Assembly (NCBI GenBank): GCA_964640155.1
Contig: CAZXEQ010000002.1
Coordinates: 322,342 to 386,341 of the forward strand
DNA length: 64,000 nt
Direction of reading: 5' to 3'
Source of the DNA: an uncultured bacterium
GTDB lineage: Bacteria; Auribacterota; JACPWU01
Shown here one piece after another: positions 14,565 through 43,475 of this stretch. Made by a program: the position numbers and the translations under genes. The notes beneath the pieces are model-generated. The model was not told where the DNA came from. It saw only the letters and a list, made by a program, of their open reading frames with translations, and searched no databases. Position 1 is the stretch's first letter; every line of letters begins with the position of its first letter.

Positions 14565-14571
14565 AAGTTTA

Positions 14572-22014: not shown

Positions 22015-22030
22015 GTTTTGCTATAAAAAT

Positions 22031-22150
22031 ATATTCTTTAAGTAAGAAGCGGGTCCTGACGCTTGGCAGCCTCACCATACTTATGAAAAATTGCGCGCGG
22101 TGGGGCTTCCCCGCCAAGCGTCACCCATATCTATAAAGAACATACTTTTA
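22031..22150 (+). repeat. palindromic repeat element (RPE-like) copy A, intergenic folP-cdaA
   Basis: Aligns to the other six copies (gggtcctgac...aaaaattgcgcgcgg.ggggc..ccccgcc.agcgtcaccc); most diverged copy. Confidence 0.6.
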
Positions 22151-22244
22151 ATAAGTTCAACCGGAAAAGTAGATTTTTGAATTTTCCGTTATCTCTTTCG
22201 AATCAAAATGAAGTAAAATCTTTTTAACAACAAAGCGAGATTTT

Positions 22245-23042
22245 ATGTCAAGCATCATTCACTTTATAGCTACTTCTTGGCGACCCGTCATAGAAGTCTC
22301 TATTTTAGCTGTCTTCTTTTACTATCTTTTTGGTTTTATTCAAGGGACACGTGCGGTTCAAGTGCTTAAGGGATTGGTCATTTTGTTGGCTATTTTCTTT
22401 GTAGCGCAACGATTAGACTTAAGTATTGTTAATTGGATTTTAGGGCGTGTCTTTCCTGTGGCAGTCATTGCACTTATTATTCTCTTTCAGCCAGAATTAA
22501 GAAAAGTATTGGCAGGGTTAGGGGGGAATCCCTTTATTCCAAGTCTCGGAAGAAATGAAGCGGTACTGGATATGATTGCAGAAACGTGTGAAATTCTCTC
22601 AAAAAAAAGAATTGGAGCCTTGATTGCCATTGAAGATGATGTAGGGCTTAAAAATTATGTGGAGAGTGGAATAAAGATTGACGCCCTTGTTTCTCAAGAA
22701 CTTTTGATTACGATTTTTTTTCAGAAAACACCCCTTCATGATGGAGGAGTGATTATTGAAGGGGAGCATATTTCAGCTGCTGCTTGTCTTTTCCCTTTAA
22801 CGCAACAGCCTCATATTCAAAAGTCTGTAGGTACGAGGCATCGTGCAGCCTTAGGACTTTCTGAAGAAACCGATGCGGCTGTGATTGTTGTGTCTGAAGA
22901 AACAGGCAGAATCTCTGTTGCTTTGGATGGGAAATTTGTTGAAGATCTAGATCAAGAAACTTTAAAGAAACTTCTCAAAGTTCGGCTTATTGGAGATCAA
23001 TCAAAAAAGGGTTGGTTTTATACGAGAAGAAAAAAGCTATGA
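22245..23042 (+). CDS. cdaA: diadenylate cyclase CdaA (DisA_N/DAC domain)
   Basis: N-terminal TM helices, LHDGGVII and TRHRAALG motifs of DAC domain. Confidence 0.8.
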   Translation: MSSIIHFIATSWRPVIEVSILAVFFYYLFGFIQGTRAVQVLKGLVILLAIFFVAQRLDLSIVNWILGRVFPVAVIALIILFQPELRKVLAGLGGNPFIPSLGRNEAVLDMIAETCEILSKKRIGALIAIEDDVGLKNYVESGIKIDALVSQELLITIFFQKTPLHDGGVIIEGEHISAAACLFPLTQQPHIQKSVGTRHRAALGLSEETDAAVIVVSEETGRISVALDGKFVEDLDQETLKKLLKVRLIGDQSKKGWFYTRRKKL

Positions 23043-23980
23043 ACATTCCATCTTGGTTGCATCATAATTTTTTGCTCAAAATTTCCTCGGTGCTTTTATC
23101 CATTGCGGTATGGACCATGGTGCGAGGAGAAGTGAGGACGACTAAAGTTTTTCATCGAGTGAACTATCAACTGGAAATTCCTTCTTCCATGGGTGTCGTT
23201 GAAAAAAGTGTTCGCTTCCTCAAGATTACTCTTACAGGCCCTCGAGATGTCATGAGAGAGACATTAAAGAACTCGATTCGTATTGTTCATCGTTTAAAGG
23301 GAATTCAAGGACCAGGCGCTGTTCAATTTCAATTGTCTTCGAAGGATTTTGCATTACCATCAGGGGTGGAACTCTTAGATGTTTCGCCTAGGTATTTAAG
23401 AGTAGTTTTAGATCGTTTGATTGATAAAGAGTTAAAAGTAAAACCTCAATTTGTAGGAAATCCAGGACAGGGTTTTCAAATGAGAGAACACTCTGTGAAT
23501 CCTACGATTGTAAAGGTGAGGGGTCCGGAAGGAAAGTTACAAAAATTAACAGAAATTGAGACACAACCTATTCTTTTGACTGGGAGAACACGTTCTTTTA
23601 TTCAAACTGTTGCTTTGAAACCTCTTTTAGAAGAAATTCACCATCAAAAGGTTCAGTATGTGGATGTGTATGTAAAAATTCAAACACAGTTATCTAAAAA
23701 AACATTTGAACATGTGCGATTGATGACATTACAAGGGAGCAAAGGGGAACCCGTCCATTTCGAACCTGCTACTGTGAAAGTGACTTTGGAAGGTCCGGGT
23801 GATTTCTTGGAGAAAATAAATGATACCGATATTCGAGCTTATGTAGATGTTGCAGATTTAAAGTCTGGGAAATATCAACTTCCAGTCAATATATTACCTA
23901 TTCAAGGTACTTCTGTTGTGAATGTAGACCCTCATGTTGTAGAAGTGGAAGTAATTGGAGCATTGGAGACTGTTTCATGA
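23039..23980 (+). CDS. cdaR: CdaA regulatory protein CdaR (YbbR-like)
   Basis: Immediately downstream of and overlapping cdaA, N-terminal TM, repeated beta-rich YbbR-like segments; start set at internal Met (MNIPSW). Confidence 0.65.
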   Translation: MNIPSWLHHNFLLKISSVLLSIAVWTMVRGEVRTTKVFHRVNYQLEIPSSMGVVEKSVRFLKITLTGPRDVMRETLKNSIRIVHRLKGIQGPGAVQFQLSSKDFALPSGVELLDVSPRYLRVVLDRLIDKELKVKPQFVGNPGQGFQMREHSVNPTIVKVRGPEGKLQKLTEIETQPILLTGRTRSFIQTVALKPLLEEIHHQKVQYVDVYVKIQTQLSKKTFEHVRLMTLQGSKGEPVHFEPATVKVTLEGPGDFLEKINDTDIRAYVDVADLKSGKYQLPVNILPIQGTSVVNVDPHVVEVEVIGALETVS

Positions 23981-25335
23981 TCTTAAAATTATTTGGAACA
24001 GATGGTATTCGGGGTGTAGCCAATACAGAGCCCATGACTGTTGAGATTGCATTACAATTGGGCCGAGCAGCAGCTCATGTTTTTGGAAATGAATCTAGGC
24101 GACACAGCGTTGTCATCGGAAAAGATACAAGACTTTCTGGTTACATGTTTGAAAGCGCTTTAGCAGCAGGCCTTTGCTCAATGGGCGTCGATGTATTACT
24201 TCTGGGGCCTCTTCCAACACCCGGAGTTGCTTTTATTACAAGGAGTTTAAGGGCAGATGCGGGGATTGTTATTTCTGCAAGTCATAATTCTTTTGAGGAC
24301 AATGGGATTAAATTTTTTTCAAACGAAGGATTAAAACTTCCTGAAGAATTAGAGCGAAAGATAGAATCTTTGATTTCTGAAGGAACCATTACGCATATTC
24401 GACCTACAGCACATCATGTAGGTAAAGCTTTTCGTATTGAGGATGCTTTGGGACGTTATGTGGAATTCGTCAAAAATTCATTCCCTAAGGGGATGACGTT
24501 GGATGGTTTGAAAATTGCCTTAGATTGTGCGAATGGAGCAGCCTACAAAGCTGCTCCTCTGGTGCTTCGAGAACTTGGAGCAAAACTGACTGTGGATCAT
24601 AATCAGCCAGATGGAATGAATATTAATAAGAATTGTGGTTCTTTATATCCTGAGCAGATTTGCCAAAAAGTTGTCAGAGAGCATGCGGATGTGGGAATTG
24701 CTTTAGATGGAGATGCAGATCGTGTCATTTTTTCTGATGAGAAAGGTCGAGAAGTGGATGGCGATGATATTATGGCCATTTGTGCAAAAGATTTCTTTAA
24801 AGATTCGACACGCAAAAAGCTTCTTGTGGCGACGGTGATGAGTAATTTTGGTTTGGATAAATTGATTGAATCTTTGGGAGGACAATTGATTCGTGCTCGC
24901 GTGGGGGATCGTTTCGTCATCGAAGAAATGCTTAAGCATAATGCTTATTTTGGAGGAGAACAGTCAGGTCATATTATTTTTAAAGATTTTACAACAACGG
25001 GAGATGGTCTTATTACGGCCTTACAAATTTTAAGAATTATGGTTGAAACTGGGAAAAAACTTTCAGAATTATGTCAACCTTTCGAAAGATTTCCTCAGAT
25101 TCTGCTAAATGTGAAAGTGAGAGAAAAGAAAAATCTTGATGAAATTGCTTCTGTACAAAAAGCTATTACACATGCCAATGAAATCTTGCAAAAACGTGGG
25201 AGAACTTTTGTACGCTATTCTGGAACAGAGCCTATTGCGCGTGTGATGGTTGAAGGAGAAAATCAAGGTCAAATTCAGGAACTGGCACAAAATATCATTA
25301 CTGCGATTAAAAAAGAAATAGGGGAAAAACCGTAA
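23977..25335 (+). CDS. glmM: phosphoglucosamine mutase
   Basis: LFGTDGIRG start, active-site SASHNSFEDNGIKFF, GDGDADR metal-binding loop; start overlaps cdaR stop (ATGA). Confidence 0.9.
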   Translation: MILKLFGTDGIRGVANTEPMTVEIALQLGRAAAHVFGNESRRHSVVIGKDTRLSGYMFESALAAGLCSMGVDVLLLGPLPTPGVAFITRSLRADAGIVISASHNSFEDNGIKFFSNEGLKLPEELERKIESLISEGTITHIRPTAHHVGKAFRIEDALGRYVEFVKNSFPKGMTLDGLKIALDCANGAAYKAAPLVLRELGAKLTVDHNQPDGMNINKNCGSLYPEQICQKVVREHADVGIALDGDADRVIFSDEKGREVDGDDIMAICAKDFFKDSTRKKLLVATVMSNFGLDKLIESLGGQLIRARVGDRFVIEEMLKHNAYFGGEQSGHIIFKDFTTTGDGLITALQILRIMVETGKKLSELCQPFERFPQILLNVKVREKKNLDEIASVQKAITHANEILQKRGRTFVRYSGTEPIARVMVEGENQGQIQELAQNIITAIKKEIGEKP

Positions 25336-25409
25336 TACGTGATGACGTACTGTGAAAGAATTTATCAAACTAAACGCAGGACGAAATACGCATCACGCAT
25401 GACAAATGT

Positions 25410-26138
25410 ATGATTCATCTAGGCATTAATATTGATCATATTGCAACTTTAAGACAAGCTCGACAGGGAGTGGAACCAGATCCTGTATGGGCTGCTTCTA
25501 TTTGTGAACTTGCGGGAGCTTATAACATTACGGTTCATTTGCGTGAAGACCGTAGACATATTCAGTCTCGAGATTTGGTTCTTTTAAGAGAAACCGTTAA
25601 AAGTAAACTCAATCTTGAAATGGGAAATAATTCTCAAATTCTTCGTGAGGCTCTTGCAGTAAAACCTGATCAAGTGACTTTGGTCCCTGAACGACGAGAA
25701 GAATTGACCACAGAAGGTGGGCTAAATGTTATTAAACATCGGTCTTCTTTATTAAGTTCGATTCAAAAACTTCAGAAAAAAGGGATTGAAACGGGTGTTT
25801 TTATCGAACCAGATGAAGATCAGGTGAAGGCTTCTTCTGAGATAGGCGTGAGCTTTGTTGAATTTCATACAGGTCGTTTTGCAAATGCAAAAAATCTAAA
25901 AGTTCAAGAAAAGGAATTGATTTTATTGTGCCAGGCCGCTGAAGAAGCACATGGCTTAAATTTACATGTTCATGCAGGGCATGGGCTCAATTTTTTGAAT
26001 ATTCATCCCATCAAGAAAATGCCTTATCTTGAGGAGGTTAATATTGGACATGCTATTATCAGTCGAGCGGTATTTATGGGACTTCAAAATGCTGTTCAAG
26101 AAATGTTGAACCTTCTTCGTGTCCCTAGTCCATTATGA
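25410..26138 (+). CDS. pdxJ: pyridoxine 5'-phosphate synthase
   Basis: LGINIDHIATLRQAR N-terminus and EFHTG motif typical of PdxJ. Confidence 0.88.
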   Translation: MIHLGINIDHIATLRQARQGVEPDPVWAASICELAGAYNITVHLREDRRHIQSRDLVLLRETVKSKLNLEMGNNSQILREALAVKPDQVTLVPERREELTTEGGLNVIKHRSSLLSSIQKLQKKGIETGVFIEPDEDQVKASSEIGVSFVEFHTGRFANAKNLKVQEKELILLCQAAEEAHGLNLHVHAGHGLNFLNIHPIKKMPYLEEVNIGHAIISRAVFMGLQNAVQEMLNLLRVPSPL

Positions 26139-26506: not shown

Positions 26507-26517
26507 AGGAATTCAAG

Positions 26518-28565: not shown

Positions 28566-28589
28566 TGGCGCCGCAATAATCCTGGTGTT

Positions 28590-30322: not shown

Positions 30323-30805
30323 TTAAGCTTTGTAAGCCTTAACAGAGAGCAGCTTAAACTTTTTAGAACTACCAGGCAAAATGACAGTAGCTTCTTCGCC
30401 GGCTTGTTTTCCAATTAATCCTTTGGCCAAGGGAGATTGAAAAGAAATAATGCCATTGTCTGCATCAGAGTCTTCAGGTCCAAGAATAGTATAAGTAAAC
30501 TCCTCCTTTGAGGATAAGTCTTTTACATGGATAACGGTTCCGATGCTGACACGATCGCCAGGAACACGTAGATCTTCAATGAATTGAACGGACATAAGGG
30601 TTTCTTTGATATTGCCAATCTCCGTCATCACCAGGGCTTGTTTTTGTTTGGCCATTTCATATTCAGCATTTTCTCGCAAATCTCCTTTTTCTCTGGCCAC
30701 GGCGATTTCTTTGGAGAGCTCAATGCTTTCAACTTGCGATAAATGCTCAAGCCGCTCATGAAGTTTTTGATGCGTTTTCTTGGTCATGTAATGAGGCATA
30801 ATCAC
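30323..30805 (-). CDS. greA: transcription elongation factor GreA
   Basis: N-terminal coiled coil with AREKGDLRENAEY and C-terminal FKBP-like domain (SFQSPLAKGLIGK); true start may be Met-7 (MTKK). Confidence 0.85.
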   Translation of the reverse strand: MIMPHYMTKKTHQKLHERLEHLSQVESIELSKEIAVAREKGDLRENAEYEMAKQKQALVMTEIGNIKETLMSVQFIEDLRVPGDRVSIGTVIHVKDLSSKEEFTYTILGPEDSDADNGIISFQSPLAKGLIGKQAGEEATVILPGSSKKFKLLSVKAYKA

Positions 30806-30875
30806 AAAGTATAGAATTTGTGATGAATCTTTTCAATGATTTATAACAATGTTTGCTCAATAGATATTGTAATTA

Positions 30876-30998
30876 AAAGTGTGTACTTTTAAAAAAGTGG
30901 CAGGGCCTGACACTCGTCATCCCCACCGTGCTCATAAAAAATTGCGCGCGGCGGGGCTCCCCGCCGAGTGTCACCCGTATTATAAAGGACACACTTTT
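30876..30998 (+). repeat. palindromic repeat element (RPE-like) copy B, intergenic greA-pbpC
   Basis: Terminal inverted repeats aaagtgtgtactttt / aaaggacacactttt, internal GC-rich hairpin gcgcgcggcggggctccccgccgag. Confidence 0.7.
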
Positions 30999-31008
30999 AT
31001 ACATGCTA

Positions 31009-33210
31009 TCACTCAACATGAATATTCACTTTTGCTGAAGCGCCTGTTTCGTCTGTAACGTAAATCTCATGCAGGCCAGGTTGAGGAATCCAAAAAAGAG
31101 CTTTTTCTGGACGGGTTTTCCCTATGAGAAGCCCATTCACAAACCACCATCGCCAGGAATGAGGCGATCCTCCTATAGACTGAAGAGGTAGTTTTTGATT
31201 TTTTTGAAAAGAGGGGGCGTCTAAGAAAAATTTTTGATTTGAAGAAATAGAAGAAATGGTTAGTTTAGAAATATCTTTTTCAAGTTCAATAGATTTTGCT
31301 AAACCTTCGTCCTGGATTTGAGGCCATGGTTTATTTTTCGGCTTTAAGCAAGATAGAAGTTTTAAAGTCAAGGGTGCTGCCAAAGTTTGTCCAACTAATT
31401 CATGAGAGCCTTTCCCAAGAGAGTTTCCAAGCCATGTTACAAGTGTGTATTCATGTGTTACTGCTACACACCAAGCATCTTTGTGTGCACTGCTTGTGCC
31501 TGTTTTCCAGGCAGGATTAAATGGAATGGCTTCAGGACAAACAGCGTAAGTTCGTTTGGGATCACTTAAGGCATTCAGTACTTGCCAGCATGCTTTTTGA
31601 GATAATATATTTTGATGGTGTGAATAAAAGTGCGGTCCTTTAAAAAGTGGCGGGTCCTGCCACTCGTCAGCCCCAACGTGCTCACTAAAAGTTGCGCGCG
31701 ATGGGGCCCCCCGCCGAGTGTCACCCGCATCTGTAAAGGACACACTTTTATCTACAGGATTTACATTTTGTGTGGCAGTGTCAGTATTAGATGTTAAAAG
31801 AGGAATATAAGTGACAGGCAGATGAATTCCTCCTCGCCCCAGTGTTGCAAAAGCTTCTGCAAGTTCTATAGGAGAAGCCTCGGCTCCTCCTATAGCTAAA
31901 GAAAGGCCATATCGATCTGGAAATTGCTCCAGTCTTTTAAATCCTAAACTTTGTAAAATTCCAACTACGCGAGCGATGCCTATTTTAGAAAGTAAAATCA
32001 TGGCGGGGATATTTCGACTTTGAGCAAGTGCTTCTGCCGCACACATAAAGCCTCTAAAAGTATGATCAAAATTGCTAGGGGTGTAGCCCTCCCAGCTCAA
32101 AGGAAGGTCTTTTAAAATTGTTGTGGGGGTGCAAATTCCTGCTTCAAAAGCGGCTGCGTAAATAAATGGTTTTAATGTAGAACCTGTTGAATAGTAACGG
32201 TTGGATAAATCTAAATTATTTGCATCGTCACATAAATTAATCGAGGCCAAACACTCAGAAGTTTGTGTGTTTAAAAGAACAAGTGAAAGAGCGTTGATCT
32301 GAGAAGATTTTAACTTTTCGAATTCTTGTTTGGCTATGAGGGTTAACTGCTCTTGAATATCTTTATCTAAAGAGGTTTTAAATTTTCCTTGTTGAAATTT
32401 TTCCTTTAAGGTCAGTAAGATGGGCAGAATTCCTGATTTTTTTTCTTGTGGCAGAGCTTGCCATGTGGCTTGAATAGGTTCTTCAATAGCGCGTGCGTAA
32501 TCTTGCTCAGAGATCATTTTTTCTGATAACATTCGAAACAAAACGTGATTACGTCTCTTAAGTGCACGTTCTATAAAACGATCTGGGCGATAGCGATTGG
32601 GACTTTGAGGAAGGCCTGCCAAAAGGGCAGCTTGGCTTAAAGAAAGATTGCGACATGAAATTCCAAAATATCTCCAGCTTGCAGCACCTACCCCGATTAA
32701 ATTCCCTCCCAAAGGACATCGATTGAGATATTCTGTCAAAATTTCATTCTTACTCATTTTTCTTTCTAATTGATAAGCACGAATAGATTCAATCAGTTTG
32801 GATGAGAAAGTCCGTGGTTTTGGATAACGTAAATGTTCAACTTGCATGGTAAGAGTGCTTGCGCCACGTATGATTTTCATGGCTTTAAAATCTTGCCAAA
32901 GAGCAGCAGCAACGCCAATCCAGTCCACTCCATGGTGTTGATAAAAACGATGATCTTCGACGGCAACAATTGCTTTAAAAAGATAAGGGCTTATTTCTTC
33001 TTCTTTTAATGGAAAATACCATTCATTTTTTTCTGAAACAAAAGCCCCCAAAGGCTTTCCTTCTCGATCTTCTATCCAAAGGCTGGGTGGAGGTTTTGGA
33101 GTGGGAGGATAAGACCAGGAGTAAACTGCAATAGAAAACGAAATACAAATAAAACTGAATACGCTAATAATTCCCAGTATGAAAATTTTGAAAGAATGTT
33201 TAATGGTCAT
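31009..33210 (-). CDS. pbpC: penicillin-binding protein 1C (transglycosylase/transpeptidase)
   Basis: N-terminal TM, glycosyltransferase motifs (EDHRFYQHHGVD; RGASTLTMQ), transpeptidase STGSTLKP; start overlaps stop of upstream A2M gene. Confidence 0.88.
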   Translation of the reverse strand: MTIKHSFKIFILGIISVFSFICISFSIAVYSWSYPPTPKPPPSLWIEDREGKPLGAFVSEKNEWYFPLKEEEISPYLFKAIVAVEDHRFYQHHGVDWIGVAAALWQDFKAMKIIRGASTLTMQVEHLRYPKPRTFSSKLIESIRAYQLERKMSKNEILTEYLNRCPLGGNLIGVGAASWRYFGISCRNLSLSQAALLAGLPQSPNRYRPDRFIERALKRRNHVLFRMLSEKMISEQDYARAIEEPIQATWQALPQEKKSGILPILLTLKEKFQQGKFKTSLDKDIQEQLTLIAKQEFEKLKSSQINALSLVLLNTQTSECLASINLCDDANNLDLSNRYYSTGSTLKPFIYAAAFEAGICTPTTILKDLPLSWEGYTPSNFDHTFRGFMCAAEALAQSRNIPAMILLSKIGIARVVGILQSLGFKRLEQFPDRYGLSLAIGGAEASPIELAEAFATLGRGGIHLPVTYIPLLTSNTDTATQNVNPVDKSVSFTDAGDTRRGAPSRATFSEHVGADEWQDPPLFKGPHFYSHHQNILSQKACWQVLNALSDPKRTYAVCPEAIPFNPAWKTGTSSAHKDAWCVAVTHEYTLVTWLGNSLGKGSHELVGQTLAAPLTLKLLSCLKPKNKPWPQIQDEGLAKSIELEKDISKLTISSISSNQKFFLDAPSFQKNQKLPLQSIGGSPHSWRWWFVNGLLIGKTRPEKALFWIPQPGLHEIYVTDETGASAKVNIHVE
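31627..31750 (+). repeat. palindromic repeat element (RPE-like) copy C, in frame inside pbpC
   Basis: Reverse complement translates without stops as KSVSFTDAGDTRRGAPSRATFSEHVGADEWQDPPLFKGPHF within the PbpC ORF. Confidence 0.7.
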
Positions 33211-36200
33211 GAATGTGAATGGGTTGCAATTTTCATTGTTTCATTGTCACGACTGATGCTGTTAATTGAAATATCATACATGCATTCAGCTTTTACAGGG
33301 GGAACAGTAAAAGTTCCAGGAGTCACAGCCCTGGCTAGATAAGTATATTGTGCTTTCCCTTTGTCTAACATTTTTCCGTAGAGCACAAGACGATCATCAC
33401 GAATATCGATATGACTATCCATAAATGTAGTTTGAGTAGGGTCTTTGAGAATAGAAGCTGAAGTTGCAAGCCTTGGATTTTCAATTTCAAGTCCAGCGGG
33501 AAGCAAATCTTCAATGACCATATTGTCATAACCCAAAGGACATTCTAGATGTATCTCTACTTGTATCAAGTCTCCACTACAAATTTTATCTAGGGCGATT
33601 GCGTGTCCCTGTTGATCAAGATATCTTTTTCTCACACTTATCCCATGATCTTCATTTAAAGGAGGCTCTTTGGCAAGGCCTGTGATGCTCCATGCAACAT
33701 AGCCCTTTGTTTTTTCAGCTCCTGAGATTTTAACTGAAAATTCTTTCCCATTCAGAAATTTATTTGAAGAATTCCAGAGAAGAGAATCTCCATTCCCTGT
33801 TTCAGAAATTTTCTCTGTCCCCGCCCAAAGTTCGGCTGATGTAAAAGGTTCTCCAAAATCTGTTTCCTTTAAATAAGACCCCAGTGCAAGAAGAGCAAAA
33901 GCATGATCTTGCGTACTTTGCCATTTTTTTTCGCCGCCGGCTTGGGCAAGTTCTTTAACCAATTTGGGAAGGGCTGGATTTTGTGGATCAAGTTCAATCA
34001 GACTTTGAATTAAAATAGCTTGATCTCGAATAGGGGACCCAATGTTTCCAGATAGGTCTCTGTTTTGGCGAGGGTGAGGTAGATTCTGAGGAATTAACTT
34101 TAAGGCCAAATCTCGTCTGCCAGAATAAAGCCAGGCCAGGGCAAGATAAAAGCGAGTTGAAGGATGGATGCTAGAGGAGATAGAAGTTGGGAGAGTGGAA
34201 GGTCTTTGAAAAATATCTTCCAGACGTGACATCATGGATCTCTGGGGATATCCCGCTTTAGCAAGAACAAAACAGGCATAAGCCTGAATCTCTAAAATAT
34301 TGGGTTGATCAGAACTTTCGTTTAATAATTTTCGAACATAATTTAAAAGTCGATCGCGAAAATCAGTTGGAATAGAGAAGCCGGCGTTTTCTGCTTCGGT
34401 GATAAAATGTGTTGCATAAACACTGGCCCAGCTCCAGCTCTCAGTATAGCCAGGCCACATAGCAAGTCCCCCTTCAGCTGTTTGCATACTGATCAAACGA
34501 TTAAGAGCTGTTTCAACTCTTTGATGAATGTATTGAGTATTAAATGGTTCTGGGAAAATCTTCTCTCCTAGTTTTTGCAATCCAATGAGAGGAAAGGTGG
34601 TGCTAACCGTTTGTTCGGCACATCCATGGGGGTATTCATTGAGATAATCCAAAGCCTTTGTCAGATTTAAAGTGGGAAATGGAGTTACGTGAATATTCAA
34701 CTGTGTTGTTCCCTCAATCCATTTTTCTGGAATTCTGATTTTAAAATCTTGATGGGGTTTAAGGGTTGCATATCCTCCTTCAGAAATTGAAGGACAGGCA
34801 GGACGAATAGGGAATATGAGATTTTGCTGATATTCTTGTCCATTGAGTTGCGCTTTGATTTTAAGACGAGCTATTCCCATTTTATTCTTAGCTTTCAAAG
34901 GAATGGTGATCACGGTTTGAGCGTTATCGGGAATGGAGTTTGTAGTAAAATTGATTTTTCTTTCGGAGGAGTGTGGAAAATAAACAGGACTTTTATTGTC
35001 TAGTTCTATTGAGAGGTTAGCAATGCCTTCACTTCCCGTATGATTGAAAATGACAATCGGTATTTCAAAATGATCATTATTTGCAGCAAAGCGAGGAGTA
35101 GTACTTTGTAACATGAGAGGAGATTTAACAAAAATGGGCTTAGATGCTGATCCAAAAAATTTTTTAGAATGAGCAATGGCCATGACTCGCAATTGACCTG
35201 TGAATTCTGGAAGACGAAAATCAACTTTTACGTTTCCATTTTCGTCACAGCGAAGTACTTTTGAAACAAGTGCAACATTTTTCATACGTTGTATAGACAA
35301 TGGAGTTAAATGACGTGGCTCATAACCTCCATCTCCTCCCACCGAACTTTTAGGATTTATTTTTGGAATCTCTGGGAAAAGTTCTCCATAAAGATCTGAA
35401 ACAAATACGTTCAAAGCTCGATTTCGATGAAAGAATGAAAAAGGATCTGGGGGTGAGAAATTCGTGAGTTGAAGAATCCCTTCATCTACGATTAACAAAG
35501 TGACCCTTGCATTTTTAGCAGGTTTATTTTGAGGGGTTAAAACTTTTGCTTCAACACGGATTTTGTTTTTGGGCAGGATTTCTTTTTTTGTTTGAATCTT
35601 TATTTTCAGCTTTTGATCGTTATTGTTGATCGCAAGGCGAGTCACGCCAAAAGCACGATGGATTTTCCATGGAGCCTTGGAATGGACGGGCTGAATCACC
35701 GTCGCACTTACATAGGCATTGGGACGATAGCTTTCTAAAATATCAATCGGAATAGATATATGAGATTGTGTCATGGTCAGAACTTTGTGAAAGAGAACAT
35801 TCTCTGTTTCTATCGTTAAAAGAAGTTGCCCTGGGAAAGGACTGCGAACAATGACTTGCGCTTGACCTCCAACTTTCAAAGAGGACGAATATCTATTAAA
35901 GTGCGTCTTTTTAAAAAGAAGTGGGTCCTGCCGCTCGTCAGCCCCATCGTGCTCAGTAAAAGTTGCGCTCGATGGGGCCCCCCGCCGAGCGTCACCCACA
36001 TTTTTAGAATCATTTTTTAATTCTTTGCCCATAGGAATAATTTCAATTTGTAATTGCTCTGGGTTCTCTCGAGAGACTGAATCCTCCCAGCCATTTTCAC
36101 TGCTCACATAAAATCCATGTGAAGTGAAGCTGCCTGTTTGAGAATCTTTGATAGCAATCACATAAGACCCTTCACTGGGAGGAATGATTTCAAAATGTCC

Positions 36201-38948
36201 TTTCTCTTGTTCTAAAATTGCATAAGAAGAAGATGCTTTTTCCAGTATACGTGTTGAGTCATAATGATAGCTCCCATCGCGATAGGTCATGATATTGTTC
36301 CAAGTCTCACGAAAAAGTTGTATCTCCATTTGTTTCGAAATCTTGGCTATTTGCCCATGCCCAGAAACACATGCAATATCAAAAACATACGGAGAACCGG
36401 GCTGAGCTTTTTGATTTTGTTGAGGACGTATGCCGACATAATATGGAACAGTATCAATGAAAACTCTTTTTGTGGCACTGACAGCCCTACCGCCCATTTC
36501 TTGAACACTTCCCAGAACAGTTAATTGCCAGGGACCCGTATACGAGGGGGTTTCTTTTATAAGAGAGTTCGGGGGGTGATTGAGAAGAAGAGAAAGATCT
36601 ACTTTCCATTCACCTTTGCCTTTCTCATTTAATTTAATCTTAGGCGACTCAATCGATTGTCCTTGGGGAAGAATACCTCCAAGTGTTTTAAAAGCATTGG
36701 CAGAATCTGTGAAAGTCCATTCTTTCCAATGTTTGGGTTTGAATGGTGCAGGATCGAGACGACTTGAAAGTGTTGCATCTGTTCCTGAAGCAGGTTGTCC
36801 AAAAAGATAGTTTGCTGCAATATGAACTGAAAGAGATTGTGAGGATAAAGTATAGCGATCATGGCGAATATTTTTTAAATTTAAAGCAACTTTCATTCTA
36901 TCGGGAATAAATTCCTCAACAAAAAAAGAAGTTGTTCCAAATGTTTTAGCATCAGCATCTTTTGATTTTGGAAGGCCAATGGATACAGTCCAATTTCCAG
37001 TGGGAATATCTTGAGGTAATTTGACAGAAAGGTAAACCATTCCAGAACTGTCCACCTTGGCCATGTGTCCTTTCCAATTTCTCCCATCGGGCCTATAAAA
37101 TTGACACCAGACAGGAAATTCTTCGGGGGTACTTAAATGAGGCCCTCGAATGATTGCCCAGAGATGGACTTTTTCACCGGGTCTATAGGCTCCACGTTCA
37201 GAGTAGACAAAAGCTTCATAGGCTTTGGATGAATAAGGACTCCCAGAAATATCAAAATGAGAATAGGAAAGTTCGCTTGTTCTTAAATCTAACCATGTCA
37301 AATGGGCGGGCTCTGTGGCAGCGTTAAAATTTGCAACTACTACGACAGGTTTCTCATCGTTAGAGGTTTCAATGGTATTGATTTTAATAATACCATTTTC
37401 ATCAGAAATTCCTTCTCCCAAAAGTTGATTCTTATTGGAAAATAAGCGAATGCGTACATGCTCCATGGGTTTACCTGTACTTAAAGACAGAGTCCAAACA
37501 AAAAGACCATGAGGGAATCTCTTGGCCACTAAACCAATGTCAGATAATGTAACAACCGTTGTATCGGATAACTCCCAGGCATATCCTTGATTCTCATTCT
37601 CGGCTTTGATTTGAATTTCATAAACCCCATTTTGCTTGAGATTTTCAGGCAGGAGCTCATCCAAGGATAAATGAATATCCTGAACTTTATTTTTCTCCAT
37701 TTCTAATTTAAGAGATTTTTGTGCGATTACTTGACTAAAATGATGAAGACCCATCCATTGATTCTCATAAACCGTGTTTCTCCAATGGACAATATTATTC
37801 TCATACATTTTTGTGAGAGTGATTTGAATGTTTTGAACATTGATAGCGTGAGCTAGAATCATTCGATTCCCTTTAGCTCCCAAAAACCCATGATCCTGTT
37901 CAAACCACACAGAAGCCTTACGATCTGGGATAAAAACACTAAAGAGATCTTCCTGAGGATAATTTTTCGAATCATTTTTGATGCGAGGTGCATTTACTTT
38001 CAATGCATATCGGTTTCCAGGGATAAAATCTGCCTCAAGACTGACTCCAAACCATTCTCGAATCAGTGTGAAGGGTAAAATAGGTTCAATAGAAAGAATT
38101 TCTTTTAAAATTTCTATATCGACATCATTATTGAAATAAAGTTGCAGTCTAATTTTTCCTTTTGAAGAAGAATAAGGTTCTACTTTTGTAATCATTAAGT
38201 GGCGGTTAAGGGTCAATTGCGTTTCATAAAGATTGGTTAATCCTAAAGGCCCACTAATCCCACATAGTCCTTCTCGAATCCTTACAATCACTTGAAGATA
38301 AGAGGATATATTTTGATAGAGAAAAGGAGTGGGCTCTGTCATCACGCGTATCACATTTGCGGTTACGCCTTCATAAAGGCGAAAAGGGATTTTTTGATGA
38401 ACCAGAGATTCAATCTCCAGAAATTTTGCAACTTCAGTTGGAAGCATTTTGTCGTTAAATTCAATTTCAATCATAAACTGATTTTTTTCGTCAAAGGCTG
38501 CTTGGCGTACAGATAAAATTTGCAAGGCTGGGGTTTTGACGGTTGCAGAATACGACTGATTCAGTAAAAACCCTTCCTTGGACTTTAAAGAATGAAGAGG
38601 AAAAGTAAAAGTAAAGGCTGTTGCTTTGGGGAGGTCTTTCTGGGGTGTAAAAGTAAGCTTTCGAGTGTTCACCCATTCCCAATGTCCAGGGATGAGGTAA
38701 GACGCATCGCCTGAACTCTTGATGATGACTTTGGATGAAACATCTTCACAAACCATATCTAAATTAAATTCCCAGGATAAAACAGGCCGTGTTCCTGTCT
38801 CAATATTGTTTCCTGGGTTAAAGCGTTCTATTTTAAGAACATTGAGCGTTTTTAATTGATAAGCATGATGAAATGCTGCCCAGGCAAGAATATTTGTAAT
38901 TGCAAAACAAAAAACGGTTATCCAAAATCGTTTGTGTAACATGAACAT
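33207..38948 (-). CDS. alpha-2-macroglobulin family protein (bacterial A2M, thioester-containing)
   Basis: 1913 aa, N-terminal signal/anchor, thioester motif GCAEQ, large MG-domain architecture; genetically coupled to pbpC. Confidence 0.9.
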   Translation of the reverse strand: MFMLHKRFWITVFCFAITNILAWAAFHHAYQLKTLNVLKIERFNPGNNIETGTRPVLSWEFNLDMVCEDVSSKVIIKSSGDASYLIPGHWEWVNTRKLTFTPQKDLPKATAFTFTFPLHSLKSKEGFLLNQSYSATVKTPALQILSVRQAAFDEKNQFMIEIEFNDKMLPTEVAKFLEIESLVHQKIPFRLYEGVTANVIRVMTEPTPFLYQNISSYLQVIVRIREGLCGISGPLGLTNLYETQLTLNRHLMITKVEPYSSSKGKIRLQLYFNNDVDIEILKEILSIEPILPFTLIREWFGVSLEADFIPGNRYALKVNAPRIKNDSKNYPQEDLFSVFIPDRKASVWFEQDHGFLGAKGNRMILAHAINVQNIQITLTKMYENNIVHWRNTVYENQWMGLHHFSQVIAQKSLKLEMEKNKVQDIHLSLDELLPENLKQNGVYEIQIKAENENQGYAWELSDTTVVTLSDIGLVAKRFPHGLFVWTLSLSTGKPMEHVRIRLFSNKNQLLGEGISDENGIIKINTIETSNDEKPVVVVANFNAATEPAHLTWLDLRTSELSYSHFDISGSPYSSKAYEAFVYSERGAYRPGEKVHLWAIIRGPHLSTPEEFPVWCQFYRPDGRNWKGHMAKVDSSGMVYLSVKLPQDIPTGNWTVSIGLPKSKDADAKTFGTTSFFVEEFIPDRMKVALNLKNIRHDRYTLSSQSLSVHIAANYLFGQPASGTDATLSSRLDPAPFKPKHWKEWTFTDSANAFKTLGGILPQGQSIESPKIKLNEKGKGEWKVDLSLLLNHPPNSLIKETPSYTGPWQLTVLGSVQEMGGRAVSATKRVFIDTVPYYVGIRPQQNQKAQPGSPYVFDIACVSGHGQIAKISKQMEIQLFRETWNNIMTYRDGSYHYDSTRILEKASSSYAILEQEKGHFEIIPPSEGSYVIAIKDSQTGSFTSHGFYVSSENGWEDSVSRENPEQLQIEIIPMGKELKNDSKNVGDARRGAPSSATFTEHDGADERQDPLLFKKTHFNRYSSSLKVGGQAQVIVRSPFPGQLLLTIETENVLFHKVLTMTQSHISIPIDILESYRPNAYVSATVIQPVHSKAPWKIHRAFGVTRLAINNNDQKLKIKIQTKKEILPKNKIRVEAKVLTPQNKPAKNARVTLLIVDEGILQLTNFSPPDPFSFFHRNRALNVFVSDLYGELFPEIPKINPKSSVGGDGGYEPRHLTPLSIQRMKNVALVSKVLRCDENGNVKVDFRLPEFTGQLRVMAIAHSKKFFGSASKPIFVKSPLMLQSTTPRFAANNDHFEIPIVIFNHTGSEGIANLSIELDNKSPVYFPHSSERKINFTTNSIPDNAQTVITIPLKAKNKMGIARLKIKAQLNGQEYQQNLIFPIRPACPSISEGGYATLKPHQDFKIRIPEKWIEGTTQLNIHVTPFPTLNLTKALDYLNEYPHGCAEQTVSTTFPLIGLQKLGEKIFPEPFNTQYIHQRVETALNRLISMQTAEGGLAMWPGYTESWSWASVYATHFITEAENAGFSIPTDFRDRLLNYVRKLLNESSDQPNILEIQAYACFVLAKAGYPQRSMMSRLEDIFQRPSTLPTSISSSIHPSTRFYLALAWLYSGRRDLALKLIPQNLPHPRQNRDLSGNIGSPIRDQAILIQSLIELDPQNPALPKLVKELAQAGGEKKWQSTQDHAFALLALGSYLKETDFGEPFTSAELWAGTEKISETGNGDSLLWNSSNKFLNGKEFSVKISGAEKTKGYVAWSITGLAKEPPLNEDHGISVRKRYLDQQGHAIALDKICSGDLIQVEIHLECPLGYDNMVIEDLLPAGLEIENPRLATSASILKDPTQTTFMDSHIDIRDDRLVLYGKMLDKGKAQYTYLARAVTPGTFTVPPVKAECMYDISINSISRDNETMKIATHSHS
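35898..36010 (+). repeat. palindromic repeat element (RPE-like) copy D, in frame inside the A2M gene
   Basis: Encodes VGDARRGAPSSATFTEHDGADERQDPLLFKKTHF inside the A2M ORF, homologous to the peptide encoded by copy C. Confidence 0.65.
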
Positions 38949-39008
38949 TCTCCAAAATCCAAAGTTTTTTAGTTAGAAATAGTAGGAAAATAATCTCACA
39001 TATAAACT

Positions 39009-39156
39009 TAAGTCCTCGGGCTTTTCACCGTCCTTTAGGATGAGGTAAGAAACGGGGCCTGCCACTCGTCAGCCCTACCGTGCTCATGAAAAATTGCGCG
39101 CGGGGCGGGGCTCCCCCCGCCGAGTGTCACCCGTATTGTAAAGGACACACTTTTTT
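39009..39156 (+). repeat. palindromic repeat element (RPE-like) copy E, long variant
   Basis: Core as other copies plus 5' extension gtcctcgggcttttcaccgtcctttaggatgaggtaagaaacgg shared with copy G. Confidence 0.7.
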
Positions 39157-39368
39157 ACACACGATCGGGAAAATTTTCTTAAAAACACTTTGAGATTTTC
39201 GAGAAGCAGGGTCAAGAAGAAAACAGAAGTGATTTATAAAATACGAAGTAACTCGCTGAAGGAGAGAAAGTAGGGATAAAATTTTTTTGAAAAATTATTT
39301 TACAATTAAAAAAACTTGAAGATTTTTCTAAATCTCAAGCTCGAAGTTTAAGGGATTTCTCAAAAGGA

Positions 39369-40508
39369 TTAAAGCTTTCTTACTTTGACATGAGCTTCTT
39401 CTAATAAGCGTAGACTTACATCCCCTACAGAATAGGCATGACTATAAACAACTTCTTTGATGCCACTATTGATAATCATTTTGGTACACATCAGACAAGG
39501 TGAAAAAGTAGAGTAAATTGTAGAGTCTTTAATGCTGACCCCATGATAAGCCGATTGTGTGATCGCATTTTCTTCAGCATGTGAGCATAAACATTCATCG
39601 AGCTGAGTCCCTTGTTGGGAGAAGCTGTTGCATCGTAGACAACCTCCATCCATACAATTCTTAGTACCACGGGGCGTTCCATTATAGCCCGTGGCAATGA
39701 TGCGTTTGTCTTTAACAATAACCGCCGCGACTTTTCGTTTGATACAATTGCTGCGTAAGGCAACTACTTTAGCAATTCCTATAAAATAATCATCCCAGCC
39801 AGGTCGACTAGAATTTGTTCCATATTTTTTTAATACCTCAATCACTTGTTCGTAAATTTTTTCAAGAGATCCTGCATTCATTAAAGAAGTATCTGAAATG
39901 GCTTGTGTTTGGTCTAGTTGTTGATGGTTAGGATTTTGAGATGAACGTTCTGCGTTTTCCAGACGTATAAATTCTTCTAGAGTCTGAGGGTCATTCTCTC
40001 TTCCTCGGGCTTTGATTCGCTCAAAACGTAGTTCCAGAGGAGCATCAATAAAAAGCAGAATAAAATCTTTTCTTTTCTTGAGGGATTTAGCTTCTTCAGG
40101 ATTGCGGATAGAATCTACAACATAATTTTTATCAACATCTAGAGTAGACGAAATCTTATCTGCTAAAACGGAAGGTCCAAACTGACTACGAAGTTCATTC
40201 CCAACTTGAATTAAATTTTCGCGTGTGATTTGAGTCCGTCGATTTTTGAGTTCATCTCGAAGAACATCCGAAAGCGAGGAATAAATAAACCCCCGTTGTT
40301 TTAAAAATTCTGCGATAACTCCTTTGCCTGAGCCATTTCTTCCAGTGAGTCCAATAATCACAAGATTAGAATCCTTTCTTATCAATTCTACTTTCTCGAT
40401 AGATTCTACTATGAGGCGAGTTGTTGGACAACCATTGTTTAAACTAAAAGCGAGAACGATTTTATAATTAAAAGTGTGTACTTTTAAAAAAGTGGCAGAG
40501 CCTGCCAC
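39369..40508 (-). CDS. P-loop nucleotide kinase / dCMP-type zinc deaminase fusion protein
   Basis: N-terminal IIGLTGRNGSGKG Walker A (CoaE/dNMP-kinase-like), C-terminal deaminase with CSHAEENAI and SPCLMCTKMI zinc motifs; the annotated Met start lies inside repeat copy F so the true start is uncertain. Confidence 0.7.
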   Translation of the reverse strand: MAGSATFLKVHTFNYKIVLAFSLNNGCPTTRLIVESIEKVELIRKDSNLVIIGLTGRNGSGKGVIAEFLKQRGFIYSSLSDVLRDELKNRRTQITRENLIQVGNELRSQFGPSVLADKISSTLDVDKNYVVDSIRNPEEAKSLKKRKDFILLFIDAPLELRFERIKARGRENDPQTLEEFIRLENAERSSQNPNHQQLDQTQAISDTSLMNAGSLEKIYEQVIEVLKKYGTNSSRPGWDDYFIGIAKVVALRSNCIKRKVAAVIVKDKRIIATGYNGTPRGTKNCMDGGCLRCNSFSQQGTQLDECLCSHAEENAITQSAYHGVSIKDSTIYSTFSPCLMCTKMIINSGIKEVVYSHAYSVGDVSLRLLEEAHVKVRKL

Positions 40509-40596
40509 TCGTCAGCCCCACCGTGCTCATGAAAAATTGCGCGCGGCGGGGCTCCCCCCGCCGAGTGTCACCCGCATATATAAAGTACACACTTTT
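40471..40596 (+). repeat. palindromic repeat element (RPE-like) copy F, overlapping the 5' end of the kinase-deaminase ORF
   Basis: Near-identical to copy B (aaagtgtgtacttttaaaaaagtggcag.gcctg...). Confidence 0.7.
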
Positions 40597-40831
40597 CTAC
40601 ACATCATCGCAAGAACTTCAATTAGAATATTTTAATTTTACTTTAATGATTTTTTAACCTTTCTACTGAGATAATGCCTCTGTTAAAAAAGGCAGCATTG
40701 TTTCAGAGATAAAAAAATCTTTTCTTCAAATAGGGGGTTATGGTATATTTTGCGCACCTTACTCATCATGTGGGATGATGAGAGGATGTAGTTCAAAGTT
40801 AATTATTTAAATCAAACCAAGGAGATCAGTA

Positions 40832-41398
40832 ATGAAGAAGTTATTAGCGATTGCCCTTCTTTGCTTAGGCGTAGCAGGTTATGCCAAGGCTGATGAAGGT
40901 TCAGCATGTGTGCTTCATGGTTTTTATCTTGAACCAACTGTAGAAGCTTTTATTCCTTTCAATGATGATTTGGATTCTACAGTTTATGCAGGCGGTAAAG
41001 GTGGATATCAGTTCAACGAATGGTTTGCTGCTGAAATCGAAGCAGGTTGGGCAAACCCAGATCTTGCTGATGTAGGTGATGTCTCCACAGTACCTTTGCT
41101 TTTCAATGCCCGCATTAATTTATGGCCTGGCGTTTACTGTGTTGATCCTTATGTATTCGGCGGTATTGGTATTGCTTTCAATGAACTTGATGGCGTTCCA
41201 GCCGGTGTTGAGATTGATGACAGCTTTGCAGGTCAAATTGGCGCAGGAATTGAATACCATATCAACGAATCTCTTTCAGCTCAGCTTGAGTTGGATTTCT
41301 ACTTTAACAGCCCCGATTTAAACGTCCCTTTATTAGATGAAGAGGATGTTGAATTAAATGCTTTCCGTATCGGTGGCGGTATTACTTGGAGATTCTAA
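40832..41398 (+). CDS. outer membrane beta-barrel protein (OmpW/OmpA-like small porin family)
   Basis: Signal peptide, alternating hydrophobic beta-strand pattern, C-terminal aromatic ITWRF typical of OMP barrels. Confidence 0.6.
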   Translation: MKKLLAIALLCLGVAGYAKADEGSACVLHGFYLEPTVEAFIPFNDDLDSTVYAGGKGGYQFNEWFAAEIEAGWANPDLADVGDVSTVPLLFNARINLWPGVYCVDPYVFGGIGIAFNELDGVPAGVEIDDSFAGQIGAGIEYHINESLSAQLELDFYFNSPDLNVPLLDEEDVELNAFRIGGGITWRF

Positions 41399-41428
41399 TT
41401 TCTCAAATTTGAGAAATTATTTTTTAAA

Positions 41429-41456
41429 GGGCGGGATTATTCCCGCCCTTTTTCTT
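41429..41456 (+). terminator. rho-independent terminator after the OMP gene
   Basis: Perfect hairpin gggcggga-ttat-tcccgccc followed by tttttcttttt. Confidence 0.65.
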
Positions 41457-41770
41457 TTTAGAGATTTTTCAGAAAAAGGGTGTTCTTTGTAATGCGGATG
41501 ACACTTGTCGGTGGGACTGACAAGTGGTAGGAACCACTATTCCTACAAAGAATACACTTGCTATAATTAATGTTTATTTACATTCTTTAAATTGGTATTC
41601 TTATCCAGTATTAGCTTCGCCCTTGGAGGGGAGCCAACGGGCCTATCCAACATTGTGAGAAAAACATTCAAATCCTATTAAAGGGATATTGAAAGTTTTT
41701 CTTTCTCTAGATTTTGGCCCTGTCAGTATTCGAATGTCCAACGTGTGTCTTGGGGAGCCATAAAGCTATT

Positions 41771-43078
41771 ATGAAAGCGCCAAAAGTTTTAGTGGTAGAT
41801 GATGAACAGGGAATACAAGAATCATTAAAAATGATTTTAAAAGAAGATTATCATGTCTTCACTGCTCCAAATGGTGAAGAGGCTTTTAAAGTTTTAAGTC
41901 AAGAATCTCCAGATTTGGTTCTCCTCGATGTTTTATTGCCTGGTATGGGTGGTATTGAAATTTTAAAAAAAGTAAAGGTTTCTAACCCGCAAACTCAAGT
42001 CATCATGGTGACAGGACAGGGGAAATTAAAAACAGCGGTAGAAGCTATTAAACTAGGTGCTTTCGATTACATTCATAAACCTTTTGATATTGAAGAATTA
42101 CGCAGAGTGGTCAAAAAGGCCATTGAACAAAGAAAATTTAAAGAGAGTGTTGATTTTCTAAAAGTAGAAGCCAAGCGCTCTTCCCAATTTGATGGAATTG
42201 TAGGATTTAGTCAAAAGATGAAGGACTTATTTGAAATCATCTCTCGTGTGATGAATTCGAATTCGAATGTTTTAATTACAGGAGAAAGTGGCACGGGAAA
42301 AGAATTGGTAGCTCGAGCTCTCCATTACAATGGTGTGAGAAAAGAAGGCCCTTTTGTGGTGGTTCATACTTCGGCGATTCCAGATAAACTCTTGGAAAGT
42401 GAACTTTTTGGCCATGAAAAAGGTGCCTTTACAGAAGAATTTCGACGTGTAGGTGGCATAGAATCGATTCATGTAGATGTTCGCTTTGTGGCTGCGACCA
42501 ATAAAAATTTAGAAAAGGCAATTCAATCAAATGACTTTCGAGAAGATCTATATTATAGATTGAGTGTGGTTCCTATCGTATTACCTCCATTGCGGGACAG
42601 AAGAGAAGATATCCCCTTGCTTGTTTATCATTTCCTTGAACGCAATCGTGCAAATAATAAAAATACGAAGGTAGAGGGATTTTCTCAAGAAGCTTTAGAT
42701 GCTTTAAGCTCTTATGATTGGCCCGGAAATGTTCGAGAATTACAAAATGTTATTGAAAACCTTGTTGTTATGAGCGATCGATATTTGATACAAATCGAAG
42801 ATCTTCCTCAAACCATTCGTATGAATCAATTGCAAAAAACTTTTTTTAATCGCAGTTCCCAAAATGGGGCTTCTTTGGAAGAAGTGGTTGCTGCTTTTGA
42901 GAAACAATTGATTTCTGAAGCCCTGCAAAAATGTAATGGTGTTTATACGCGAGCGGCTAAGCTCTTGGGAACAACGAGGCGTATCTTAAAATACCGTATT
43001 GATCAATTACAAATTGTGATTGAAAAGCGTAGACGACGAGTCTCTAAAATTAAAGAAGCAGTCCCTGTTTCTTTGTAA
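41771..43078 (+). CDS. sigma-54-dependent response regulator (receiver + AAA+ + Fis-type HTH), apparently lacking the Walker B region
   Basis: Receiver domain (VLVVDDE...LLDVLLPGMGG), Walker A GESGTGKE, ESELFGHEKGAFTEE (GAFTGA variant), R-finger FREDLYYRL, sensor II WPGNVREL, C-terminal HTH; start set at internal Met (MKAPKV). Confidence 0.8.
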   Translation: MKAPKVLVVDDEQGIQESLKMILKEDYHVFTAPNGEEAFKVLSQESPDLVLLDVLLPGMGGIEILKKVKVSNPQTQVIMVTGQGKLKTAVEAIKLGAFDYIHKPFDIEELRRVVKKAIEQRKFKESVDFLKVEAKRSSQFDGIVGFSQKMKDLFEIISRVMNSNSNVLITGESGTGKELVARALHYNGVRKEGPFVVVHTSAIPDKLLESELFGHEKGAFTEEFRRVGGIESIHVDVRFVAATNKNLEKAIQSNDFREDLYYRLSVVPIVLPPLRDRREDIPLLVYHFLERNRANNKNTKVEGFSQEALDALSSYDWPGNVRELQNVIENLVVMSDRYLIQIEDLPQTIRMNQLQKTFFNRSSQNGASLEEVVAAFEKQLISEALQKCNGVYTRAAKLLGTTRRILKYRIDQLQIVIEKRRRRVSKIKEAVPVSL

Positions 43079-43267
43079 ACATTTTTGTACAATCTTGTAT
43101 TTCTCGCCATTTTTGTTCATTCATATGCAAGTGCAATATCTTATCAGCATCCATCTCCTCACTTCTTAACTTGTTATGATTTAAATAGTTAAGACTATTT
43201 TTGTTGTTATTTTTATTTTTGGCATAAAACTTGATTATCCATAGGATGAGTGCTTCCTCGTTCAAAT

Positions 43268-43312
43268 CCCGCGGAAGGTAGGCAAAAACCTGCTTTCCGT
43301 GGGAATTTTTTT
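43268..43312 (+). terminator. candidate rho-independent terminator
   Basis: Stem cccgcggaagg / cctgctttccgtggg (with G-U pairs) followed by aattttttt. Confidence 0.4.
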
Positions 43313-43325
43313 GATATCCCTAATA

Positions 43326-43475
43326 AAAAGTGTGTCTTCGGACTTTTCGCCACCTTTAGGATTATATAAGAAACGGGTCCTGCCACTCGTCAGCCCCACC
43401 GTGCTCATAAAAAATTGCGCGCGGTGGGGGGCCTCTCCGCCGAGTGTCACCCGTAGTGTAAAGGACACACTTTTT
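43326..43475 (+). repeat. palindromic repeat element (RPE-like) copy G, long variant
   Basis: TIRs aaagtgtgtc / aaaggacacac; 5' extension cttcggacttttcgccacctttaggat shared with copy E. Confidence 0.7.

Follow-up and report, generated by a model that had tools for sequence, protein, structure and literature searches.

As far as the summary in PMC10969869 describes them, the Rickettsia palindromic elements (RPEs; Ogata et al. 2000 Science 290:347, 2002 Genome Res 12:808) are old, decaying palindromic repeats of ~150 bp for which no transposase is known. A substantial share of them lies in frame in unrelated housekeeping genes, where they add a conserved peptide at tolerated sites, and their presence varies between related genomes. 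A second precedent is QMITE2 of Coxiella burnetii, a MITE, or miniature inverted-repeat transposable element, of 150-190 bp with terminal inverted repeats (TIRs) and a very stable predicted hairpin, which occurs in full-size and shorter versions between copy-specific direct repeats of 7-11 bp, mostly at gene 3' ends and in intergenic regions (PMC5896051). Here we describe a repeat family that combines these traits, found in 64,000 nucleotides of an uncultured bacterium (assembly GCA_964640155.1, contig CAZXEQ010000002.1, positions 322,342 to 386,341), referred to as the window in the following. The repeats very probably constitute a family of non-autonomous transposable elements of the cut-and-paste type. 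It is closest to the RPEs in its behaviour and to MITEs such as QMITE2 in its anatomy, while by sequence it is a member of neither.

In the window the family comprises eight copies, seven full-length on the plus strand and one internally deleted on the minus strand (c1 to c8, Table 1). An earlier note, made from the sequence alone, had listed seven copies of ~120-150 bp, all in the same orientation. These seven places are recovered by a repeat search (family D1, with starts at 22029, 30880, 31630, 35901, 39032, 40475 and 43353) as well as by an nhmmer profile built from the seven copies (E 1e-36 to 6e-43 per copy), and c1-c7 can be aligned with one another across ~150 nt. The count and the shared orientation do not stand, as the eighth copy, c8, lies on the opposite strand; it has an internal deletion of ~45 nt, and its central hairpin is gone. 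Also missed was that c3 and c4 lie within open reading frames (ORFs). Profile scores on the opposite strand are weak, and the orientation of the copies is therefore well defined. All copy numbers given here refer to the 64-kb window plus the named contigs from relatives and other samples and are not genome-wide. Pairwise identities of 60-91% among the copies indicate that the family is old and decaying.

Several copies touch the ends of genes. Copy c1 begins directly 3' of the stop codon of a pterin-binding (folP-like) gene (21133-22014), the stop codon of pbpC is overlapped by the outer end of c2, and the GTG start (40508) of a mechanically called ORF at 39369-40508 (kinase/dCMP-deaminase) falls within c6. 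Next to two further copies we observed strong terminator-like hairpins: c8 lies just past the one at 41426-41451, and c7 within the T-tract of the one at 43267-43304. The element may have a preference for AT-rich tracts at gene ends.

The unit has a clear anatomy. Its consensus TIR of ~27 nt (GATnnTGTrnATAAAAGTGTGTCCTTTA) contains an inner repeat of 16 nt (AAAAGTGTGTCCTTTA / TAAAGGACACACTTTT), which is perfect in the consensus, and continues outward for ~13 nt as a weaker inverted repeat (GAT..TGT..AT / AT..ACA..ATC). The outer ends defined in this way coincide exactly with the limits of BLAST alignments to copies from other samples. The unit thus extends ~13 nt further out than the repeat seen at first, and the original size estimate has to be raised: five copies measure 146-151 nt, while a long subfamily, made up of c5 and c7, reaches 173-175 nt through 23-25 nt added in the left arm. 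A unit of 146-175 nt has no coding capacity for a transposase. The terminal inverted repeats and the GC-rich central hairpin proposed in the earlier note hold up against chance. The hairpin GCGCGCGGCGGGGCTCCCCGCCGAG is found exactly at 30944 with 0 occurrences expected, and the TIR motif AAAGTGTGTCCTTTA (allowing <=3 mismatches) has 13 matches in the window, ten of them within copies, where 2.95 are expected. The contrast in composition is equally evident, with a GC content of 0.57-0.69 in the core, 0.36-0.40 in the flanks and 0.39 in the window.

Directly outside the outer ends lie duplications of 8-9 bp. Their sequence differs from copy to copy, which identifies them as target DNA and not as a part of the element. 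The flanks read GCTCAATA / ACTCAACA for c2 (6/8 identical), TATATTTT(G) / TACATTTT(G) for c3, AGGAAAAT / GGGAAAAT for c5 and GCGAGAAC / GCAAGAAC for c6 (7/8 identical in each of the three), and TTTATGGC / TTTAATGGC at the predicted ends of a copy from another sample, L005. Searching the flanks for direct repeats without constraint is undiscriminating in such AT-rich DNA, whereas a test that fixes the offset at 13 nt outward from the inner TIR, on either side of the unit, discriminates well. At this offset the flanks of the same copy are identical at 45/72 positions, a sum attained in 0/20000 permutations; flanks from different copies share a mean of 2.24/8, and 0/72 cross pairs reach 6. A TA duplication of the Tc1/IS630-like type was considered and rejected: the apparent TA at the border of the inner TIR is element sequence, and the true ends lie 13 nt further out.

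The size of the duplication also sets the family apart from the Correia elements of Neisseria and other IS630/Tc1-type bacterial MITEs, to which it had been likened. Those share with it units of ~100-160 bp, TIRs of ~26 nt, RNA hairpins and a dispersal in intergenic DNA and at times within genes. Such elements duplicate the dinucleotide TA. A variable duplication of 8-9 bp therefore points to a transposase family other than the Correia type, and from the comparison drawn in the earlier note only the likeness to RPEs remains, strengthened by two insertions in frame with genes.

The duplications bear as well on a different mode of movement. The copies could be REP/REPIN-like or IS200/IS605-type palindromes, which a Y1 (HUH) transposase such as RAYT would move in the form of folded single-stranded DNA. 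This would agree with the folding of the whole unit into a long imperfect hairpin, in which compensatory changes maintain the pairing, and the co-orientation of 7/8 copies on a uniformly positive GC skew is what strand-specific transposition would give. However, HUH-type single-strand transposition (IS200/IS605, REPINs) leaves no target duplication, while the duplications seen here are 8-9 bp long and copy-specific. In addition, the termini are true 27-nt inverted repeats and not subterminal hairpins, the unit has no conserved tetranucleotide head such as GTAG or CGTC, and no RAYT, TnpA or other Y1 transposase is found among the window ORFs tested. The orientation bias itself is not significant (binomial p 0.07), and a copy in the related genome L002, described below, is inverted relative to the same genes. 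We regard single-strand movement of this kind as very unlikely. REPs are likewise GC-rich palindromes in an ordinary genome with pairing conserved between copies, but they measure 20-40 bp, carry a GTAG/CGTC head and have no target duplication, in contrast to units of 148 nt with long TIRs and duplications (PMC3733652).

Comparison with relatives provides both empty and filled sites. A search with PbpC led to L002 (GCA_041906865.1), which has ~79% nucleotide identity to the window and the same gene order a2m-pbpC-greA-PQQ. It lacks c2, with a pbpC-greA spacer of 54 nt vs 203 nt in the window. It also lacks c3, the target of which (CAAAATGTA, in gene orientation) is present there once. Its PbpC has 681 aa vs 733 aa in the window, and the difference of 52 codons equals 156 nt, which corresponds to one 148-nt unit and 8 duplicated nt. 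In L003 (GCA_016178005.1), which is more distantly related, c4 is missing, and the alpha-2-macroglobulin (A2M) has a clean 51-residue gap in its place. Conversely, L002 has a truncated copy of its own between a2m and pbpC, at a site where the two genes of the window overlap by ATGA and no copy is present. The reading as a MITE, which the earlier note had offered, is thus borne out by the TIRs, the fold, the copy-specific duplications and the variable presence at orthologous loci.

The family is also not confined to this locus. Full copies with 85-90% identity to c3 occur in unrelated contexts in two other samples (L004 and L005), and a glycosyltransferase on another NCBI contig (P0121) abuts a copy and has its false N-terminus within it. 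These copies argue against a local origin, in which segmental duplication or gene conversion within the 21-kb region would have produced the repeats without transposition. The clustering of the copies in 21.5 kb would fit such a scenario, as would the fact that the most similar pairs are neighbours (c2/c6 with 91% and c5/c7 with 85% identity). Yet the ~148-nt unit alone is shared, the flanks are unrelated and each has its own short repeat, and c3 shares more identity with copies from other samples (85-88%) than with most of the other window copies. We consider a local origin hardly credible.

In public data the family is rare and found in a few related assemblies only. The core pattern TTGCGCKCGN{8,16}CCGCCRAGYGTCACCC has 0 matches in 100,044 reference genomes and 0 in JGI metagenomes, which simply reflects the absence of the family's genomes from those collections. 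An exhaustive search of 1.84 billion proteins with a profile of the encoded peptide returned 5 true matches, namely the A2M itself and four tiny ORFs on copies. Two of these led to the full copies in L004 and L005. When a concatenated six-frame peptide query was used in a word-indexed protein search, P0121 alone was returned.

Two copies lie inside genes, and this is where the resemblance to RPEs is most pronounced. Copy c3 is located within pbpC, which encodes penicillin-binding protein 1C, and c4 within a bacterial alpha-2-macroglobulin gene (a2m). Both host ORFs are intact, and both copies are read on the minus strand of the element and in the same frame, so that they are predicted to be translated as extra protein: c3 corresponds to residues ~482-533 of PbpC (...GDTRRGAPSRATFSEHVGADEWQDPPLFKGPHF...) and c4 to residues ~974-1025 of A2M (...GDARRGAPSSATFTEHDGADERQDPLLFKKTHF...). 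The predicted element-derived peptides, which include GDTRRGAPSRATFSEH in PbpC and GDARRGAPSSATFTEH in A2M, have GD(T/A)RRGAPS(R/S)ATF(S/T)EH.GADE.QDP.LFK in common, with 26/55 aligned residues invariant. Stop codons are largely absent from five of the unit's six frames.

Both host proteins have their catalytic motifs intact. PbpC keeps its SxxK (344), SRN (398) and KTG (569) motifs, and c3 sits in an indel-rich stretch between SRN and KTG, in which other PbpC lineages have insertions of their own. In A2M the thioester motif CAEQ (1443) is kept, and c4 is situated between the domains bMG6 (839-948) and bait region (1022-1161). We infer that the protein insertions are neutral. An AlphaFold model of PbpC, based on a 7-sequence alignment, has a pLDDT (predicted local distance difference test) of 53 and is too poor to judge whether the insert is exposed at the surface.

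A different GC-rich repeat (GGGGGGAGATTTGAATCCACCCTCCCCTAACCCCTCCC...) was observed in L003 at 8122-8175 and 9928-9981. One copy is located in its alpha-2-macroglobulin ORF, read as ...GDLNPPSPNPSHLGRG..., and the second in the a2m-pbpC spacer. At the hinge where c3 is inserted in the window, the PbpC of L003 (P0003) furthermore has an insertion of its own. Repeats inserted in frame may be common in the clade of the window host and L003.

The predicted fold of each copy is a long, imperfect hairpin (-43 to -59 kcal/mol) that has a GC-rich stem-loop at its centre. The stability on the plus strand corresponds to z values of -2.9 to -7.7, in line with the palindromic structure suggested at the outset. 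With nine copies aligned, pairing is seen in 83.5% of cells, compared with 37-57% for slid partners; for helix 2 of the fold the value is 82.8%. Changes on both sides of a pair are found in 16 pairs vs 10.1 in shuffles, with 2/500 shuffles reaching 16. Examples in the core stem include A-U to G-C and C-G to U-A.

Such conservation raises the question whether the repeats are, or have become, functional structured RNAs or cis-regulatory hairpins, for instance stem-loops that stabilise or terminate transcripts. They would then persist because of their fold and not as selfish DNA. Besides the stable folds, the excess of pairing and the both-side changes, the location of several copies at gene ends or adjoining terminators speaks in favour of this idea. 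On the other hand, two copies lie in coding sequence, antisense to the plus orientation of the fold, and are predicted to be translated. The contexts of the copies are mixed (3' ends, 5' ends and divergent promoters), and their presence varies at orthologous sites of close relatives. A promoter and terminator scan revealed no excess of promoter- or terminator-like sites, Rfam has no family matching any copy at gathering thresholds or even at E<=1, and a few subfamily founders could account for the compensatory changes. We therefore find a primary function as RNA unlikely. An RNA role would nevertheless be compatible with an origin as MITE, as an added layer, and would be possible for the intergenic copies given the conserved fold.

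The compensatory changes in the internal stems suggest that the hairpin itself is under selection. The family might then move or act as a folded single strand (DNA or RNA) and still generate duplications of 8-9 bp. As another alternative, PbpC and alpha-2-macroglobulin, which are functionally linked periplasmic proteins, might share the in-frame copies as a co-opted surface peptide module. We know of no bacterial transposition system in which folded single-strand movement goes along with duplications of 8-9 bp, and we judge this pair of ideas, taken together, to be improbable.

What would a cut-and-paste mechanism look like for these elements? A transposase encoded outside the window would bind both ends of the unit and insert it into AT-rich DNA by a staggered cut of 8-9 bp, the repair of which would leave a short direct repeat around each copy. 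In a gene, the stop-poor core and a gain that is a multiple of three (148 + 8 = 156 nt) would, within a permissive loop, add ~52 residues and allow the gene to survive. The pbpC and alpha-2-macroglobulin genes would each have made such a gain without being lost, as in Rickettsia palindromic elements. Duplications of 8-9 bp together with TIRs of ~27 nt point to a transposase of the DDE type that would act in trans. Duplications of this size are known from IS256, ISL3, IS6, IS66, IS1595, ISAs1 and IS1, which offers a lead only. The family itself appears to be inactive at present.

A number of observations weigh against this interpretation. No transposase domain is detected by Pfam in 36 ORFs covering most of 378-45719, in agreement with the earlier note; for the ribosomal-protein/rpoBC block that follows after 46 kb, the identification is based only on the order of the genes and the lengths of the ORFs. 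Neither is there a longer element with matching ends, as an 18-nt TIR query gave 5 matches at chance level in the 100,044 reference genomes, none of them in related taxa. The duplications are imperfect, and those of c1, c4, c7 and the L004 copy are weak (3-4/8). The spread is uneven: all eight copies fall within 21.5 kb, and the remaining 42 kb has none. Compensatory changes that preserve pairing are not needed by plain double-strand cut-and-paste, and the L002 copy, which has no recognisable TIRs, may stem from an old insertion there or from a loss here. That the repeats are fragments of the end of a known insertion sequence (IS) or prophage finds no support, since blastn against plasmids and phages gave no match, nor did Rfam, and the matches of the 18-nt TIR query are at chance level.

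Taken as a whole, the window contains a new family of old, decaying MITEs with insertions in frame as known from Rickettsia palindromic elements. Within the description given in PMC10969869, these are compared for their general behaviour and not for the 27-nt TIRs and 8-9-bp duplications of the window family. Also in contrast to the RPEs, the host is not an alphaproteobacterium. The peptide profile gave no sign of RPE-bearing Rickettsia proteins among 1.84 billion proteins, a comparison made at the protein level. QMITE2 differs in having a GTAG-type REP that is targeted by IS1111, which the window family lacks, and it overlaps gene ends by a few bases, whereas two full in-frame insertions are seen here (PMC5896051). 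For a relationship with QMITE2 the relevant search is that of the core pattern, with 0 matches in the reference-genome collection, whose Coxiella burnetii content is unchecked. Gene order and GC content had led to an early idea that the repeats are a Coxiella QMITE; it was dropped, as the host is not Coxiella. Across the reference genomes, the JGI metagenomes and the protein profile search there is no sequence similarity outside the small clade of the host.

The closest matches to RpoB are metagenome-assembled genomes labelled 'Chlamydiae bacterium' (82%), followed by Candidatus Auribacterota (~66%) and Verrucomicrobia (64%), which places the host as an uncultured member of the Planctomycetes-Verrucomicrobia-Chlamydiae (PVC) superphylum. 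Chlamydiae do not appear in a 2024 review of prokaryotic MITEs, and our literature search yielded no description of such an element in the Chlamydiae/PVC host group.

Table 1. Copies of the repeat family, the two genes that contain copies, and tRNA-linked inserts. Positions refer to the window unless a contig is named.
Feature	Position	Strand	Description
c1	22015..22163	+	149 nt; intergenic; E 1.6e-37; ends AT-decayed
c2	30863..31010	+	148 nt; between greA (30323-30805, -) and pbpC
c3	31614..31761	+	148 nt; within pbpC, read in frame
c4	35885..36030	+	146 nt; within alpha-2-macroglobulin gene; decayed ends
c5	38992..39166	+	175 nt, long subfamily; between a2m start and kinase/dCMP-deaminase gene stop
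c6	40458..40608	+	151 nt; 91% identity to c2
c8	41472..41559	-	~88 nt; E 5.1e-7; AT-decayed
c7	43314..43486	+	173 nt, long subfamily; 85% identity to c5; upstream of NUDIX gene
pbpC	31009..33210	-	penicillin-binding protein 1C, 733 aa; Transgly + Transpeptidase + BiPBP_C
a2m	33207..38948	-	bacterial alpha-2-macroglobulin, 1913 aa
Ser-cga tRNA	12678-12764		insert region 12765-12898
Ser-gct tRNA	14283-14371		insert region 14372-14573
Thr-tgt tRNA	44153-44224		insert region 44225-44418
tRNA-linked insert, L011	6897-7012		
tRNA-linked insert, L012	1888-2022	-	
tRNA-linked insert, L017	5243-5398	-	

Apart from the repeat family, the window holds a second kind of insert. Downstream of three of its nine tRNA genes, at a distance of 119-178 nt, the 3' part of the respective tRNA gene is directly repeated over 16-25 nt, from the T-loop to a few nt beyond the tRNA end. 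The insert contains an inverted T-loop core that depends on the tRNA (GGGATTCGAA for Ser, GGATTTGAA for Thr/Leu), a helix with compensatory changes in 5/8 pairs (4 sequences), and a block that hardly varies (CGGGTGGCCGACCGGAGTGA), after which comes ..AGGCGCC. Inserts built in the same way also follow tRNA genes in three unrelated metagenome contigs with 48-66% GC, and there is no match in Rfam (E<=1), viral contigs or the literature. The insert resembles a miniature element which bears a structure and, in several phyla, integrates into the T-loops of tRNAs; it seems more unusual than the MITE.

Two protein-coding loci also deserve mention. In an NtrC-like sigma-54 response regulator (41714-43078), Sigma54_activat is matched in two separate stretches, the best of which (162-241) covers profile positions 1-80 of 168. 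Its sequence (...GHEKGAFTEEFRRVGG...) gives the impression that the ATPase lacks its Walker B segment, and the regulator may be degenerate. Two tuf (EF-Tu) genes at 46476-47672 and 62231-63427, each of 398 aa and 100% identical over the first 300 nt, bracket a tRNA-Trp-secE-nusG-rplKAJL-rpoBC-rpsLG-fusA block; gene conversion has probably taken place between them.

For work on genomes of this group the repeat family has practical consequences. It disrupts short-read assembly, as in the case of Logan contig L001, which ends within c7, and it gives rise to false gene starts and tiny false ORFs. These include the N-terminus of P0121, the start of the ORF at 39369-40508 and four database 'proteins' of 33-63 aa (P0123-P0126), which are translated copies. 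A duplication of 8-9 bp limits the candidates for the transposase, and in the insertions c3 and c4 nature has tested the amount of additional sequence that PBP1C and a bacterial alpha-2-macroglobulin can tolerate. The pairs of empty and filled sites are unusually clean and the target duplication is defined, in a poorly known, PVC/Chlamydiae-like lineage. The family thereby extends an RPE-like phenomenon beyond Rickettsia: selfish palindromic DNA that, by its predicted translation, survives in genes as extra protein.

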